64,000 bases of DNA, from contig VBAL01000114.1 of the NCBI GenBank assembly GCA_005888595.1, positions 573-64,572 on the forward strand, given 5' to 3'. The stretch is from Candidatus Segetimicrobium genomatis. GTDB lineage: Bacteria; Sysuimicrobiota; Sysuimicrobiia; Sysuimicrobiales; Kaftiobacteriaceae. Under the pieces are notes generated by a model. The model was not told the origin of the DNA and did not search any database. It worked only from the letters and a program-made list of their open reading frames with translations. Positions 2,562 to 25,670 of this stretch are shown here, in pieces. The translations under genes and the position numbers were made by a program. Positions within the stretch are counted from its first letter, which is position 1; each line of letters begins with the position of its first letter.

Positions 2562-3389
2562 GTGACCGGTCTCGCGCTGGTCCTCCCTCCGTTTTTCCTT
2601 CTCATCTTCTTCATTTTGGTCCCCGCCGCACAGGCGGTCCTGGAGACACTGCGCGTCGAGCGCAGCGGTCAGATCGTGTATTCTCTGGCCCGCTACGTGG
2701 AGATGTTCCACACCATCTCGCTGCGCCGCAGCGTGGGGTTCACCGTCATGGTGACGCTGGCCTCGGTGGCGGTCACCTTCGTGCTGGCCTACGCGCTCGC
2801 GTTATACCTGCGCTTCAGCCGGGGATGGGTGAGTACGCTGCTGGGGGCTCTGTTTATCATCCCCCTGTTCATTCCGACGGTCATCGCCTCGTTCGCCATG
2901 GTAACGTTTCTGGAGCACCACGGCTACATTGCCACCCTGCTGCACTACGTCGGCGTGGAGGACACGCCATCGCTGGTGTTCAACGCCACCGGCATCGTGC
3001 TCACCGAGGTCTGGGCGAGTATTCCTTTCGCGACGCTTGTGCTGCTGGCCGGGCTGCAGGGCATCGATGACGCGCTCATCGACAGCGCGCGCGACGTGGG
3101 CGCCGGGGCGCTGCGGACATTCCTGGCCGTCGTCCTGCCGCTCAACGCGGTGGCGACCATCATCACCATGAGTCTGCTCTTCATCGGCATCCTGGGCAGT
3201 TTCACCATTCCATATCTGGTCGGCGGGAACGCCCCGCAGATGATGAGCGTGGTGATGACCAACTACTTCACGAACTACCTGCGGCCGGATATCTCCGTCT
3301 CCCTGGCGGCACTGAGCTTTGTGATCGCCGGGCTGGCCGGGGCCGCCTACGTCGCCGGCGTCTCGCGCCGGGAGCGGGGTGCGGTGTGA
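2562..3389 (+). CDS. ABC transporter permease (PotB-like, binding-protein-dependent inner membrane component)
   Basis: Six predicted TM helices and the EAA-like loop DSARDVGAGALRTFLAVVLP. GTG at 2562 with GGGAGGGAG RBS, 20 nt after the SBP stop. The longer ORF start at 2187 overlaps the SBP gene. Confidence 0.75.
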   Translation: MTGLALVLPPFFLLIFFILVPAAQAVLETLRVERSGQIVYSLARYVEMFHTISLRRSVGFTVMVTLASVAVTFVLAYALALYLRFSRGWVSTLLGALFIIPLFIPTVIASFAMVTFLEHHGYIATLLHYVGVEDTPSLVFNATGIVLTEVWASIPFATLVLLAGLQGIDDALIDSARDVGAGALRTFLAVVLPLNAVATIITMSLLFIGILGSFTIPYLVGGNAPQMMSVVMTNYFTNYLRPDISVSLAALSFVIAGLAGAAYVAGVSRRERGAV

Positions 3390-4169
3390 GCGCCGTTGGC
3401 GAGGCGGTGCGCGAGCGTGTCGGCGGCCTGTTCTGGTTCTGGTCGGTGGGCGCGTTCCGGCGATCGCTGCCGGTGCTCTTCCTCCTTGGGCTGGCGGCAT
3501 TTATCCTCGGACCGCTGCTGAGCCTCATCCTCTGGGCCTTTGCGGGCCGGTGGTTCTACCCGGCGTTGCTGCCCCAGGAGTTCTCCGTGAAGTGGTGGGA
3601 CGTGGTCTTTGGAAATCGCAGCGTCGTGAATTCGATCAAATACAGCCTGATGACCGCCCCGACGGTCACGCTGCTGTCCGCGCTGATCTGCCTGCCGGCC
3701 GCCTACGCCTTCGCGCGCTTCCAGTTCCCCGGCCGGCGGTTTCTGCTGCTGTCCTTTCTCAGCGCCAACTCGTTTCCCAAGATCGGGCTCTACATCAGCA
3801 TCGCCACGCTCTTCTACCGCCTCCACCTGATGACGACGTTTTGGGGTGTGGTGCTGATCCAGTTGATGGGCACGCTGTTGTTCATGATCTGGATCCCCAC
3901 CGGGACGTTCCGGGGGATCAACCGCAGTCTGGAAGAAGCGGCGCGGGACGTGGGCGCCAGTGGCGCGCGCACCTTCTTTCAGATCACCCTCCCCATTGCC
4001 ATGCCCGGGCTGCTGGTTGCCGGACTGTTTGCCTTCCTGGCGGCGTTCGATGAAGCGCAGGGGACGTTGATCGTTCTCGATTCTGCTGACGCTGCCCTCG
4101 CTGGTGCTGCTGCTCCTGGCGCAGCGGTTGCTGCGGCAGGGCTACCTCGCCGCGGGCTACACGCTCTGA
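3386..4169 (+). pseudogene. ABC transporter permease (PotC-like) disrupted by an internal deletion/frameshift near 4078-4090; reads through into the ATPase gene
   Basis: GTG 3386 (GTGA overlap with upstream stop). Frame A is a canonical permease up to FDEAQGTLIV, then ~22 residues expected from the paralogue 23298..24143 (MPYVQTLPVLLWAYLGGRSSIFTY) are missing. The canonical C-terminus ILLTLPSLVLLLLAQRLLRQGYLAAGYTL* continues in the +1 frame, stop TGA 4167-4169. In frame A the ORF fuses to the ATPase (ORF 3386..5290, 634 aa). Confidence 0.65.
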
Positions 4170-4177
4170 GGCTGCCC

Positions 4178-5290
4178 ATGGCCGGCCTGCAGCTCGTCAA
4201 CCTCACCAAGCGCTTCGGGACGACGGCGGCGGTCTATGACTTCTCGCTGGATGTCCACGACGGCGAGTTGATGTGCCTGCTGGGGCCATCGGGGTGCGGA
4301 AAGACGACGACGCTGCGGATGATCGGCGGCTTCGCCACTCCCGACGGCGGCGACATCCTGATCGAGGGGCAGAGCGTCCTGGCGTTGCCGCCGGAGCGGC
4401 GCCCCACGGCGATGGTATTTCAGCGGTTCAATCTCTGGCCGCACATGACCGTGACGGACAACATCGCCTTCGGCCTGCGGCTCCGGCGCCTACCCGCGGC
4501 CGCGATCCATCGGAAGGTGGGAGAGACCCTCCAACTGGTCGGCCTCCCGCACGCGGCGCGCAAATGGCCGCACCAGCTCTCCGGAGGGGAGCAGCAGCGC
4601 ATCGCCGTGGCGCGGGCGCTGGTCCTGGAGCCGAAGATCCTGCTCCTGGACGAACCCTTCAGCAACCTCGACGCGCGGCTGCGCGTGCGGATGCGGGAAG
4701 AACTGAAGACGCTGCAACGCCAGGTCAGTATCACGACGGTCTTTGTCACGCACGATCAGGAAGAGGCGCTGACGCTCGCCGATCGGATCGCCGTGATGAA
4801 CAAGGGCGTCATGGAGCAGGTGGACACACCCGGGGCCCTCTATCGCCGGCCGCAAGGGCTGTTCGTGGCCGACTTCATGGGCACCATGAACTTCATTCGC
4901 GCGCGGTACCATCGCGATCGGGGCGCGCTGGCCGGCGGTCAGGTGGGCATCGCCGCCCGCGGTGACTGGCACGATGGCGCAGTGGTCACCGTGGCGTTCC
5001 GTCCGGAGGATGTGATGTTCGTCGATGGCGATGCGGGCATTCCCGTTCAGGTTCGTCGCGTCGTCAACCTCGGCCATTACCTGGAGGTCACCGTCGACGG
5101 CTCCGGGGTCGGGGCGATCAAGGTCTTCACGGATGGACAGCGACCGATGTCCGAGGGGCAGAGCCTGAACGTACACTTCAGGCGCATCCTGGTCTACGCG
5201 GAGGGCTTACCTCTCGCGGAGATCGAGATGCCCCGCCTGACGCACCTGCGCACTGCTGAGGAAGTGGTCGAGGGCTCGCCCAGCGTCTAG
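4178..5290 (+). CDS. ABC transporter ATP-binding protein with C-terminal TOBE domain (PotA/MalK/FbpC-like)
   Basis: Walker [11 protein letters not shown]-loop, signature LSGGEQQRIAVARAL, Walker B ILLLDEP, H-loop VTHD. C-terminal ~130 aa is a TOBE/MOP-like beta domain. ATG at 4178 (MAGLQLVNLTKRFG). Confidence 0.85.
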   Translation: MAGLQLVNLTKRFGTTAAVYDFSLDVHDGELMCLLGPSGCGKTTTLRMIGGFATPDGGDILIEGQSVLALPPERRPTAMVFQRFNLWPHMTVTDNIAFGLRLRRLPAAAIHRKVGETLQLVGLPHAARKWPHQLSGGEQQRIAVARALVLEPKILLLDEPFSNLDARLRVRMREELKTLQRQVSITTVFVTHDQEEALTLADRIAVMNKGVMEQVDTPGALYRRPQGLFVADFMGTMNFIRARYHRDRGALAGGQVGIAARGDWHDGAVVTVAFRPEDVMFVDGDAGIPVQVRRVVNLGHYLEVTVDGSGVGAIKVFTDGQRPMSEGQSLNVHFRRILVYAEGLPLAEIEMPRLTHLRTAEEVVEGSPSV

Positions 5291-5470
5291 AACCGTAGGG
5301 ACGTCCGATCACCTGCCCGAGGTGGTTCCGCACGAATCACGCTGAGTTTCCGCTGGTCGGTCAAATGGCTCGCTGCCCAGGTCGGGACAAAATCTGGTGT
5401 GTTTGGCGGAATGCGGGTACGTCAAACTTGGAATCGGGAGCCCTGGACTAGATCTGATGGCTTTCTATGC

Positions 5471-5761
5471 ATGGGGGTCCGGTACGTGACTTATCTGTAC
5501 GCCCTGGTGGTAATCTTACTGGTCGCTCTGCCAATCATCGTCGCGTTCGGATACGCTGCCAAAAGAGGGAAGTCTGCTCGGACAACTGCGTCTTTCGTTC
5601 TGCCGTACATTGCACTGCTCGCTTTGTCGTTTTTTTTGCTTGAAAAGCTCAGAGGGTTTGATCTCCTCGTTGCAACGGTAGTCGTTGTCGCGATTGGTAC
5701 GTTGGCATTCTATGTGTACGCGGAAATAGTCGACATTGGACTCCGAGGTCGCAAGAACTAA
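5471..5761 (+). CDS. small hypothetical membrane protein (~96 aa, 3 predicted TM helices) in low-GC island
   Basis: ORF 5399..5761; internal ATG 5471 (MGVRYVTYLYALVVILLVALPIIVAFGYAA...). GC ~50% versus ~67% in flanks. Uses TTA/AAA/AGA codons that are rare elsewhere in the window. Three hydrophobic helices. No recognisable family. Confidence 0.4.
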   Translation: MGVRYVTYLYALVVILLVALPIIVAFGYAAKRGKSARTTASFVLPYIALLALSFFLLEKLRGFDLLVATVVVVAIGTLAFYVYAEIVDIGLRGRKN

Positions 5762-6116
5762 CTAGGGTTCATCGGTGCCTGGCACCGATGAAGAAAAAAT
5801 AACTCGATTGGCATCAGGAGAATGACCCGGTTGGGTCATTGACGTCAACACCTACTCGTAGGGTTCATCGGTGCCTGTCACCGTCGATCCAGCGAGTCAT
5901 CGGTGTCAGGCACCGATGAAGCAAAAGGGGCTCGATTTGGCTATCGGAGAATGACCCGGCTAGGTCATTGTTGCAGGACCAGTCTGGTTGAGCCTATCCA
6001 GCGGCGCGATAACAGCGAGTGAGACTGTTCACGGTGCCAAGGCACCGATGAAGAAAAAATGGCTCGATTGGCTATAGGAGAATGACTCGATTGGGTCATT
6101 GACGCAAACACTTACT
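5762..6116. repeat. three tandem copies of a ~95-105-bp structured repeat (copy A 5762-5857, copy B 5858-~5976 with expanded stem-loop and divergent tail to ~6026, copy C ~6027-6116)
   Basis: Each unit has hairpin 1 TTCATCGGTGCC-N-GGCACCGATGAA (12-bp perfect arms; copy B arms ~20 bp with 13-nt loop), then GAAGAAAAAAT, then GGCTCGATTGG, then hairpin 2 AATGACCCGGTTGGGTCATT, then CAACACCTACTCG. Copy C overlaps the TAA stop of the TIM-barrel gene at 6112. Confidence 0.85.
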
Positions 6117-6939
6117 TGCGCACGATGCCGCGGAGATAGGCCAGGGCCCGCGGTACAGCCGTCGTCCCGGGCTCCTCGCCCTCGTACTCGACCGACACGT
6201 ACCCTTTGTATCCCGCCCCGCGCAGCAGCGCGATCGCGGCGTCGTGATCCACGCGCGCGTCGCGTCCATCGGGTAACACCTTGGTGAACTTGGCGTGGAC
6301 ATGCCACGCCAGCCGTGCGGTCCGCTCGATGCTGGCCTGGCCGTCGAGATAGTTCCCCGAATCCAGGAGCAGGCCCAGGGCCGGGCTCCCCACGGCTTCC
6401 AGGATCGCCAGTACGTCTGCCGCCGTCTGCACGAACCCGCGATGATTATGGTTTTCCATCACCAACTGCACCCCGAGCAGTTCGGCCTCCCCGCAGGCGG
6501 CGCGCAATGCCGCGATCATCGGGTGCCACCGCGCCGCGCGATCGCCTTCGGGCCATCCCGCAAAGGTCCGCAGGAAGCGTGTCCGCAACTGTTTCGAGAT
6601 GTCCATCCAGGCTACGGTCCGCAGCAGTTCCTCCTGACGTTGCGCGTCATCGGCCACTCCGAAGTCGTTCATGAAGGCGATGTTGACGATCTCCAATTTG
6701 TGGTGATCCGCCGCCTCGCGCAGCTCGGCAAGATGTTCCGGAGTCGGCGCGCCAATGTGTTTGTCCTCCAGCTCGACGGCCTTCAAACCGAGATCCTCGG
6801 CGCACAGGCGGAACCAGTCCACCAGGGTCAGCTGGCCGGCGTCAATTTCCTTTGCATACGACTCTGAACTGCAGGCGAGATCCACGGGCTCACTCCGTGC
6901 GAACGCGAGTGGGCAGGCCACCCGCGGCGATGCTGGCAT
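6112..6939 (-). CDS. sugar phosphate isomerase/epimerase (xylose-isomerase-like TIM barrel; IolE/IolI/MocC-like)
   Basis: 275-aa ORF with family motifs (VELEDKH, VMENHN, LDSGN, VHAKF). Start either ATG 6939 (50-nt overlap with upstream gene) or GTG 6885 (4 nt after the upstream stop). Confidence 0.8.
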   Translation of the reverse strand: MPASPRVACPLAFARSEPVDLACSSESYAKEIDAGQLTLVDWFRLCAEDLGLKAVELEDKHIGAPTPEHLAELREAADHHKLEIVNIAFMNDFGVADDAQRQEELLRTVAWMDISKQLRTRFLRTFAGWPEGDRAARWHPMIAALRAACGEAELLGVQLVMENHNHRGFVQTAADVLAILEAVGSPALGLLLDSGNYLDGQASIERTARLAWHVHAKFTKVLPDGRDARVDHDAAIALLRGAGYKGYVSVEYEGEEPGTTAVPRALAYLRGIVRK

Positions 6940-24143: not shown

Positions 24144-24881
24144 TGGAGCTGCTTGCCAGTCGGGCCGGCCGGCCGCTGATCTCGGCCCACCGAGGATTCG
24201 CCGCCGCGGCGCCGGAGAACACGCTGGCGGCGCTGGACCTCGCCTGGCGCGCCGGCGCCACTGTGGCTGAGATCGATGTGCAGTTGACCCGCGACGGCCG
24301 CGTCGTCCTGATGCACGACCGCTCGGTGACGCGGACGACCAACGGCTCCGGGCTCGTGCGGGACCTCACGTTTCGAGAGCTCAAAGCCCTGGATGCCGGC
24401 GCATGGTTCGGAGCGCGTGCCGGCGCTGGCAGAAGTCTTGGACTGGAGCCGCGGCCGACTGGGGTTCCTCATTGAGTTGAAGAACTACCCGCACCGGGAG
24501 ATGCCGCTGGTCGAGAAGACGATTGCCGAGATCGAGGCGCACGGCGCCCAAGACTACGTCGTGCCGGCCGGCTTCGACCACGTCACCCTGGCCGAGATTC
24601 ACCGTATCCGCCCGCATTGGCCGCTGGAAATGATCTACATCGCGCGTCTCGCCGACCCGGTCCACGCGGCGCGGGCCGCCGGGGCCGCCCTCATCTCGCT
24701 GGAGCCGGAGTTCTGCCTGGAGCCCGATGTGAAGGCGATGCATGCCGCCGGACTTTCGGTGCTCACCACCCTGCTGGACGGAGAGCACGCCCAAGAACTT
24801 CTGGGGATCGGCGTGGACGTCTTCGAGTCCGATGATGTGGCAATGGTGGCGTCGGCCCTGGGAGTCGCGCCGAGGGTCTAA
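24143..24881 (+). pseudogene. glycerophosphodiester phosphodiesterase (GDPD) family gene with a 1-nt frameshift near 24408-24415
   Basis: N-terminal part MELLASRAGRPLISAHRGFAAAAPENTLAALDLAWRAGATVAEIDVQLTRDGRVVLMHD (GDPD HR(G) motif) is in the frame of ORF 23336..24475. From ERVPALAEVLDW onward the conserved sequence continues in ORF 24393..24881. Could be a sequencing error. Confidence 0.6.
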
Positions 24882-25670
24882 CCTGCCTGCGGGCTGAGCG
24901 TCGTGCGCAGCGCCGCGACCGACTCGCGCACGTAACGGTCGAGCACCGCGCCCCAGGGGACCTGCGACGAACCGCCTGGGAGCGTGGCCTCGGGTGGAGC
25001 AATCTCCAGAACTACGGCGCCCGAGTATCCGATCTCACGCAGCGCCACGGTGATCGGGAACAGATCAAGGTGACCCCCGCGCAGCCCCCGCCTGTTTGAA
25101 TCGGCGACGTGCACGTGCCACAGCCATGAGCCCGCGGCGCGGATGGCCGCCGGGATGTCGGGCTCTTCGATGTTGGCGTGGAAGAGATCCAGGGTCATAC
25201 CCACCTGGGGTGAGCCCACGTCACGCAGGTAGGCCAGGGCCTGTGCCGTGGTTGTCACCAGGTAGGCCTCATAACGGTTGAGCGGCTCGATGGCGATCCG
25301 ACCATCGCCATTCCTGCTCCCGGGTGCTAATCGGCGCGAGGCGCGACTCGCCTGAGGGCAACATCTGTACAACCGGCGCGCCGATGGCGGCGGCGAACCG
25401 CAGGCAGCCGACCAGATAGGCGACCGCCTCTGCCCGGATGGCGGGATCGGGATGGGCCAGGTCACGCCGCGTCTGTGGGACCTTGCACGAGGCGGTCAGG
25501 GCTACGGGGGCCAGGCCGGTTCGGGCGAGGAGACGGCGCACCGCATCGGGGGTCCACATCTCCGGCTCGCCCAGGAGTTCCACGCCATCGCAGCCGGCTG
25601 CGGCGATGCGCGCCAGCGCCTCCTCCAGCGGGGCCTCGTAGATCCAGGTGCATGCGCCGAGTCGCAACAC
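24878..25670 (-). pseudogene. sugar phosphate isomerase/epimerase (TIM barrel) with a frameshift near 25300-25325
   Basis: N-terminal half (VLRLGACTWIYEAPLEEALARIAAAGCDGVELLGEPE...) is in ORF 25269..25940, with GTG 25670 eight nt after the upstream stop. C-terminal half (GRIAIEPLNRYEAY...WHVHVADSNRRGLRGGHLD...VVLEI) is in ORF 24878..25465. The two frames meet in GGGAGCAGGAATGGCGATGG. Confidence 0.6.

Follow-up and report, generated by a model that had tools for sequence, protein, structure and literature searches.

A low-GC island between two sugar-metabolism genes of Candidatus Segetimicrobium genomatis: a probable orphan immunity gene followed by structured repeat units

What is a short stretch of low-GC DNA, with one small gene and a run of structured repeats, doing between two converging sugar-metabolism genes of Candidatus Segetimicrobium genomatis? 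The locus lies within 64,000 nt of contig VBAL01000114.1 (assembly GCA_005888595.1, positions 573 to 64,572), referred to here as the window, and an earlier note had described it as a low-GC island at 5291-6120 with an orphan gene for a small membrane protein. From our comparison of strains, homologues and repeat copies, we conclude that the island is foreign, horizontally acquired DNA inserted precisely between the two genes, that its small open reading frame (ORF) is a real, conserved gene, and that the repeat units lie at breakpoints between modules. As to its role, we consider the island on balance probably an immunity cassette of small size, gained by horizontal transfer and accompanied by units that act as cassette-exchange sites.

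The composition of the island sets it apart from its surroundings, as the earlier note had claimed. In 200-nt windows the GC content was 0.485-0.565 over positions 5300-6100 vs 0.62-0.74 in the flanks, and 5291-6120 (GC 0.530) was the minimum among the 830-nt windows of the 64 kb (mean 0.652, sd 0.026). The gene had a GC content of 0.50, the repeat region 0.53 and the upstream leader 0.58. The codon usage of the gene is likewise foreign, with a third-position GC content (GC3) of 0.55 vs 0.79-0.87 in four neighbouring genes, and with TTA, AAA and AGA codons in use.

The extent of the insert follows from strains that lack it. Relatives were found by a search with the neighbouring AP_endonuc_2 protein and are metagenome-assembled genomes titled 'Bacillati bacterium ANGP1'; a literature search under the name 'ANGP1' yielded unrelated papers only. 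In the two closest genomes, L029 (isolate NP_8) and L041 (isolate NP_1), whose AP_endonuc_2 proteins are 91% and 88% identical to that of the window, the ATP-binding cassette (ABC)-transporter gene and the converging AP_endonuc_2 gene have overlapping stop codons (GTCTAGCGCAC) and no insert. The empty sites read GTCTAGCGCACGAG in L029 (in longer context ...CCCAGCGTCTAGCGCACGAGACC...) and GTCTAACGCACCAG in L041. The filled site of the window, with a slash at each junction, reads ...CCCAGCGTCTAG/AACCGTAGGG...ACACTTACTTG/CGCACGATGCC..., the junctions being GTCTAG/AACCGTAGGG on the left and ACACTTACTTG/CGCACGA on the right, and a target duplication is absent. Comparison of empty and filled sites therefore defines the insert as 5291-6118 (828 bp, GC 0.53), with a 1-nt ambiguity (G); the extent given in the earlier note was right to within 2 nt, its right end being corrected by the empty sites. 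The left junction coincides with the stop codon (5288-5290) of the ABC transporter ORF (3386-5290, + strand). On the right, the AP_endonuc_2 gene (6112-6939, - strand; xylose-isomerase-like TIM barrel family), a host gene converging on the island, takes its last codon (Lys) and its TAA stop from bases 6112-6117 of the island, and the insertion has altered the C-terminus of its product from ...LVR-stop to ...IVRK-stop. No tRNA gene occurs in the 64 kb, in agreement with the earlier remark that none marks the borders.

Depending on the strain, the insertion site is filled in one of three ways, always with an identical right junction. In L056 the ABC stop codon is followed by 31 nt, a single repeat unit and this junction; in L048/L052 the site holds two units, a 128-aa ORF, a 72-aa ORF and one further unit. 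The presence/absence polymorphism that the earlier note had proposed to look for among related genomes is thus real, the site being empty in L029 and L041 and variable in L056 and L048/L052. Of the two empty isolates, NP_8 falls with the window and NP_1 with L052/L056; therefore, both sublineages hold filled and empty alleles. Several metagenome strains carry an island with 97.8-100% identity to that of the window next to an ABC-side flank with just 91-96% identity. This difference in identity suggests that the island spread recently, by homologous or site-specific recombination, and the earlier description of a mobile-element remnant is a fair one for such a horizontally acquired insertion.

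The sole credible ORF of the island (5486-5761, + strand, stop codon 5759-5761) encodes 91 aa from a GTG codon at 5486. The earlier note had described a three-helix protein of about 96 aa: a hydropathy scan gave three hydrophobic peaks, but the length corresponds to an alternative ATG at 5471, whereas the starts of the homologues correspond to the GTG position. The protein has a basic C-terminus. Pairwise ratios of nonsynonymous to synonymous substitution rates (dN/dS) of 0.12-0.34 indicate purifying selection on the gene. All nine close homologues come from metagenomes, and the family is tiny, with 11 cluster representatives among 1.84 billion proteins in an exhaustive profile search. No Pfam, NCBIfam, PHROG or PDB relative of the family was found, matches to PHROG holins being insignificant (E 0.03-0.5). 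The family gene sits in at least six unrelated genomic contexts, which argues against the earlier proposal that it regulates the flanking transporters. A T8 homopolymer lies inside the gene (5629-5636, + strand); in strain L057 it is T9 (about 517-525) and shifts the frame, which yields the database protein P0009. Phase variation, decay of the gene or an error in the assembly could each account for the extra T.

The likely function of the family emerges from its distant members. P0011 (locus L061), P0010 (L063), P0016 (L065/L066) and P0019 (L071) are 30-55% identical to the window protein, and their genes directly follow a larger, co-oriented gene, starting 29 nt behind it in L061, with a 4-nt overlap in L063, and 21 nt and 12 nt behind it in L065/L066 and L071, respectively. 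The upstream proteins of the four loci end in a hydrophobic, Ala/Gly/Val-rich C-terminal domain of about 150-170 aa that is homologous throughout (45% identity between L061 and L063, E = 2e-30; ~34% between L065 and L061 over 78 aa, E about 5e-5). The RHS repeat-associated core (TIGR03696, Rhs_assc_core) scored 66.3 bits in L061 and 88.9 bits in L065 (cut-off 32.5) and ends in both at a DPxGT motif directly before the C-terminal domain; the L071 translation shows an equivalent core-end motif. An immunity gene directly after the polymorphic toxin is the canonical layout of Rhs, WapA and contact-dependent inhibition (CDI) systems. The identities among the toxin ends (29-48%) and among the immunity proteins (30-52%) run roughly parallel, which is weak support given only four to five pairs.

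Probable decayed 3' ends of the toxin domain precede other, orphan copies of the gene. With a toxin-end profile built from the four intact toxins only, the peptides upstream of the L050, L006 and L016 copies ranked 1, 2 and 3 of 3,936 six-frame peptides (E = 1.5e-11, 0.015 and 0.72, respectively), and these were matched by tblastn too. Since four distant members occupy the immunity position after Rhs toxin domains, we consider the protein most likely to serve as an orphan immunity protein and not as a toxin or holin; the window copy is without a toxin gene, which makes it an orphan. From these sequence comparisons we regard an immunity function as likely for the family, with the window copy as an orphan on which selection still acts. 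Two further features of such loci were observed. In L063, a second, orphan toxin C-terminal fragment lies downstream of the toxin-immunity pair (1080-1257, tblastn E = 3e-6); arrays of orphan fragments are typical of rhs loci. In L006 (9054-9640), the 3' end of a tRNA-Lys(TTT) gene recurs behind that gene in at least three partial copies, each with a terminator-like hairpin, and beyond them come an orphan toxin remnant, the immunity-gene copy, a GIY-YIG protein and a SocA_Panacea-domain protein. This region looks like the product of repeated integrations at the tRNA gene.

Downstream of the gene, the three tandem structured repeats reported in the earlier note were found as related units at 5762-5858, 5859-6028 and 6029-6118, all on the + strand, and the region folds far more strongly than shuffled sequences (z = -8.6 as RNA, -6.8 as DNA). 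No further copy of the unit motifs occurs in the window, and none is expected by chance. Tandem Repeats Finder reported nothing in the island because the units differ by indels. Comparison of 21 copies revealed two forms, a long one of about 185 nt and a short one of about 95-125 nt, which are built in the same order from site A, a linker, hairpin B, a body and site RE. Site A is a 25-bp palindrome, TCRYCGGTGCC-N-GGCACCGATGAA; the linker holds AATGGCT...GGCYATT; hairpin B has the consensus AATGACCC-N4-GGGTCATT; the body is either short (tail ...ACTTACTYG) or long (about 100 nt extra); and the consensus of site RE is TCGTCGGTGCCTGTCACCGTCGMTC. A and RE resemble core-type sites, with 8-9-bp inverted arms and a 7-bp spacer, and the ends of a unit are able to pair as a ~20-bp stem. 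Beyond A and RE, the copies diverge completely.

In the window, site A of unit 1 (5768-5792, + strand; palindrome TTCATCGGTGCC-T-GGCACCGATGAA) begins 6 nt past the stop codon of the gene and is followed by a short body (5793-5858, + strand) with hairpin B at 5821-5840 (AATGACCCGGTTGGGTCATT) and the tail GACGTCAACACCTACTCG. An RE-type site (5864-5890, + strand; TTCATCGGTGCCTGTCACCGTCGATCC), a motif found at the end of every long-form unit, here closes unit 1, which is thus a complete short element from A to RE. The next site A lies 6 nt further on, a spacing that reads as a cassette junction without cargo. Unit 2 (5897-6020, + strand; A 5897-5920, hairpin B 5950-5969) matches the long-form profile (nhmmer E = 7e-18), its body stopping at profile position 126 of 188, i.e. 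truncated. Unit 3 is of the short form (6028-6118, + strand; A 6028-6052, hairpin B 6081-6100, tail ...ACACTTACTTG) and is cut just ahead of the expected RE position, where host DNA resumes exactly; its end and the junction recur in L048/L052 and L056. Taken together, the two island ends look like the internal junction of units 1 and 2 in circularly permuted form. A mini-ORF (MTRLGH) over hairpin B, with GGAGA ahead of it and synonymous changes among the three window copies, looked conserved and was ruled out, as its Shine-Dalgarno spacing is 1 nt and long-form copies are frameshifted and read on without a stop.

The units are rare and lineage-specific. The hairpin B pattern was present in 14 of 241 million metagenome records, all from one group of JGI soil samples, and in 0 of 185,579 reference genomes; it was not found in IMG/VR contigs, where the RE 18-mer gave three chance matches only. 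A unit profile search detected no copy in the rest of the 64 kb or in 16 related GTDB loci (L028-L043, ~150 kb). Most long-form copies come from one other hotspot, between the genes for heme O synthase and a major facilitator superfamily (MFS) transporter, where the cargo comprises HigB/HigA-like, VapBC, ParE/Phd, DUF3800 and small uncharacterised genes as well as another copy of the immunity gene. The cargo separated by units at the few hotspots also includes small membrane proteins. Within an array the units share one orientation and stand upstream of co-oriented cargo (three units, all +, in the window; four, all +, in L046/L050; three, all -, in L045). L054 and L044 have the unit body and right flank in common and differ in the left flank and site A, and L046_10690 and L051_605 have the left flank in common and differ in the right; the unit body travels with the downstream, not the upstream, cargo. 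Truncated Phd and ParE genes, pieces of the MFS transporter gene and what is left of a serine recombinase adjoin units, and the distance from a stop codon to the site A behind it is 6 nt in both the window and L048 and about 22 nt in L006.

Individual arrays offered several additional observations. L045 holds four differently truncated 3' fragments of the adjacent MFS gene (3-278, about 2300-2443, 3516-3827 and about 4450-4586), two of which directly abut the site A of a unit, thus associating units with the duplication or capture of host-gene 3' ends. An RE motif in L050 (6940-7064) cuts off a serine recombinase after its N-terminus (VALYSRVSTTDKDQDPETQLLP...) and continues in frame into the toxin remnant (VVFSPVPVTVAPAFGATRIAQLAR; the intact L071 toxin reads ILSAVPAFGAVRIAQIV). 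RE may derive from the toxin coding sequence or target it. The two cargo proteins of L048 (3655-4321, corresponding to L052 4480-5154, - strand), of 128 and 72 aa, have no family match; the smaller one has two hydrophobic segments, its gene stops 6 nt ahead of a site A, and it may be another immunity-like gene. A 780-aa protein of the heme O synthase/MFS hotspot (L046 5442-7784, - strand) has weak nucleoside 2-deoxyribosyltransferase-like and AAA_16 matches, which suggests a defence-type NTPase among the cassettes.

Together, these data suggest the following mechanism. The 91-aa protein would reside in the inner membrane and guard the cell against an Rhs-type membrane toxin delivered by neighbours. 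The native partner of the family would be an Rhs (YD-repeat) polymorphic toxin, whose hydrophobic C-terminal domain presumably inserts into or depolarises membranes; we infer this activity from the composition of the domain and the membrane location of its partner. The immunity protein probably binds the toxin inside the membrane, blocking its insertion or oligomerisation, and the window copy may confer such protection. The units would serve as DNA sites for joining or exchanging cassettes, worked by a putative recombinase or HUH-type enzyme whose gene would lie elsewhere in the genome. In favour of DNA recombination sites are the location of the units at module boundaries, their shared orientation, the exactness of the insertion, the core-type look of A and RE and the seemingly circularly permuted island ends.

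Several results weigh against the reading of the island as an immunity cassette with exchange sites. As to the toxin, the upstream 195 nt of the window copy gave no sign of a remnant in profile or shuffle tests, the leader ranking outside the top 25 matches of the toxin C-terminal-end profile and its nucleotide similarity to the upstream regions of L016, L006 and L050 having z = 0.1-1.0. The family members in L062, L064 and L067-69 adjoin neither a toxin nor a remnant. The toxin domain had no homologue in a large word-indexed protein database or in PDB, so that its membrane activity is deduced from composition alone. As to the units, neither the flanking genes nor the 20 further window ORFs that were sampled showed an integrase or transposase domain, in line with the earlier remark that none marks the borders, and the only recombinase or transposase found beside the arrays was one decayed serine-recombinase N-terminus. 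The core sequence common to both island junctions is at most 1 nt, unlike the products of classical tyrosine recombinases. Covariation in the hairpins did not exceed that of a shuffled control (87.7% vs 86.7% paired). Homologous recombination between units could shuffle modules without a dedicated enzyme, and the capture of host-gene 3' ends at units is fully explained by none of the proposed models.

The leader itself (5291-5485, + strand) is possibly a decayed toxin remnant or a unit remnant. It has only short motifs in common with the units (GTAGGG; AAATGGCTCG) and gave no BLAST or nhmmer match to them. The idea that 5296-5430 holds a degenerate 'unit 0' together with the decayed remains of a toxin gene was dropped, as profile and shuffle tests gave it no support.

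How the units operate can be explained in other ways. A tentative and rather doubtful proposal is that the A-B-RE units are the sites of an undescribed, non-attC cassette system, driven by a non-integron recombinase encoded away from the arrays; in an uncultured soil phylum, such a system would gather immunity genes, toxin-antitoxin (TA) pairs and 3' fragments of genes at a small number of hotspots on the chromosome. We think it unlikely that the units are instead elements akin to miniature inverted-repeat transposable elements (MITEs) or repetitive extragenic palindromes (REPs), mobilised in single-stranded form by an HUH (Y1) transposase of the IS200/IS605 or REP-associated tyrosine transposase (RAYT) type encoded elsewhere, with the gene as a trapped passenger. 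Such movement would account for the missing target duplication and for empty alleles equal to the predicted seamless site. The end hairpins A and RE are alike and on one strand, the head-to-tail tandem clusters between convergent genes are reminiscent of bacterial interspersed mosaic elements (BIMEs), and GTAGGG, which stands ahead of two window sites, recalls the GTAG of Escherichia coli REPs. However, no Y1 transposase was found, the copy number is very low for such elements (0 elsewhere in the 64 kb, 0/185,579 reference genomes, 14 metagenome contigs), the about nine distinct left flanks have no conserved target tetranucleotide, and the hairpins are terminal rather than subterminal.

Two explanations centre on RNA. 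In one, the units act in transcripts, as 5' untranslated region or 3'-end structures that stabilise, terminate or regulate the cargo messages, and their position at boundaries results from portable homology. The constant co-orientation with downstream cargo, the location of site A shortly after stop codons in the window, L048 and L006, the strong predicted folding and the G-T intermediates present in the hairpin stems would all fit. Nevertheless, we hold this to be improbable, and the RNA regulators suggested in the earlier note found no support: a permissive Rfam search of the island gave only chance miRNA-like matches to the palindromes, and the whole window had no match at the gathering threshold; no terminator-like site occurs in 5150-6250 on either strand, site A being followed by GAAGAAAAAA with no U-tract; a sigma-70 promoter scan gave two weak sites only, both within the gene; and the covariation does not exceed its shuffled control, as given above. 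An RNA role also leaves unexplained the truncated genes beside units and the precise insertion without flanking homology. The other, very improbable, explanation takes up the toxin/holin-like module of the earlier note, in which the small protein itself is toxic, in the manner of type I toxins or lysis proteins, and the repeats encode its RNA antidote. The protein is indeed small and hydrophobic with a basic C-terminus, has the weak PHROG holin matches mentioned above, and belongs to a family beside which TA modules are common. Against this stand the location of the gene directly behind Rhs toxins, where immunity genes belong, in four divergent loci, a length of 91 aa with three hydrophobic segments, unlike type I toxins, the lack of any antisense promoter or terminator in the scans, a context devoid of endolysin or phage genes, and the insignificance of the holin E-values. 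The idea is thus reversed, because the protein is most likely the antidote.

The orphan immunity gene that we favour has parallels in known systems. Pseudomonas aeruginosa pairs the Rhs pore-forming toxin Tse5 with Tsi5, an integral membrane immunity protein for which two transmembrane regions are predicted (PMC9637101). Some other loci of the present family similarly have an Rhs core ending in DPxGT, a hydrophobic C-terminal domain and a small membrane-protein gene directly downstream. In contrast to Tse5/Tsi5, the toxin domain and the immunity family have no sequence similarity to Tse5 or any PDB chain, the immunity protein has three predicted hydrophobic segments rather than two transmembrane regions, the host lineage is uncultured, and the window copy lies far from any rhs gene with no recognisable toxin remnant. 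Orphan Rhs modules appear as the topic of PMC3967940, and orphan copies with probable 3' toxin remnants, as in rhs loci, exist in the family described here.

The packaging of the gene resembles integrons, clusters of attC sites lacking integrase (CALINs) and rAID-1 systems, but fails the defining tests of each. The rAID-1 (recombinase-associated acquired interbacterial defence) arrays of Bacteroidales consist of orphan immunity genes with skewed GC content and repetitive, integron-like intergenic sequences (Ross et al., bioRxiv 10.1101/471110). Unlike rAID-1, no XerD-family recombinase was found at the array 5' end in the window or in the examined parts of L045, L046 and L050, and the arrays are short (1-5 units), carry mixed TA and other cargo, and belong to another phylum and another repeat sequence. 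As in integrons and CALINs (Cury et al. 2016, PMC4889954), the arrays have co-oriented structured repeats, here of ~100-185 nt, between small, often uncharacterised ORFs and TA modules, and their content is strain-variable; and the unit ends can pair into a ~20-bp stem like the R and L boxes of attC. However, no pair of attC boxes (RYYYAAC...GTTRRRY) was found on either strand of the island or of four related arrays, the unit is longer than a typical attC site and has two separate palindromes plus an internal hairpin, its body travels with the downstream cargo, and no IntI was found in the flanking genes or the 20 sampled window ORFs. With REP/BIME elements and IS200/IS605 MITEs the units share extragenic tandem palindromes between convergent genes, the lack of a target duplication and one-strand hairpins, but they differ in their very low copy number, narrow distribution and cargo association, and no RAYT or TnpA was identified.

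Two observations concern the host genes of the window. Compared with L029, the ABC permease gene has an 80-nt deletion at 4060-4090 (near 4073; GATCGT/.../TCTCGATTCTG), which passes the native stop by a frameshift and fuses permease and ATPase into a 634-aa ORF. The Pfam match in this fused ORF covers part of the permease domain only, and the transporter adjoining the island may be a pseudogene. A 195-aa ORF at 24878-25465 (- strand) matches the C-terminal half of AP_endonuc_2 only (profile positions 99-237 of 249) and may be a truncated paralogue of the gene adjoining the island.

The reading of the island gene as an orphan immunity gene gives a testable function, immunity to a new hydrophobic Rhs toxin domain, to a family without annotation anywhere. 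It suggests that, within an uncultured lineage from soil, genes for interbacterial defence are passed around in the form of tiny cassettes. Immunity and TA genes accumulate at hotspots that vary between strains and are marked by the repeats, a parallel to integrons and rAID-1 with different sites. If these sites have their own recombinase, they would represent a further independent way to capture and shuffle defence genes.

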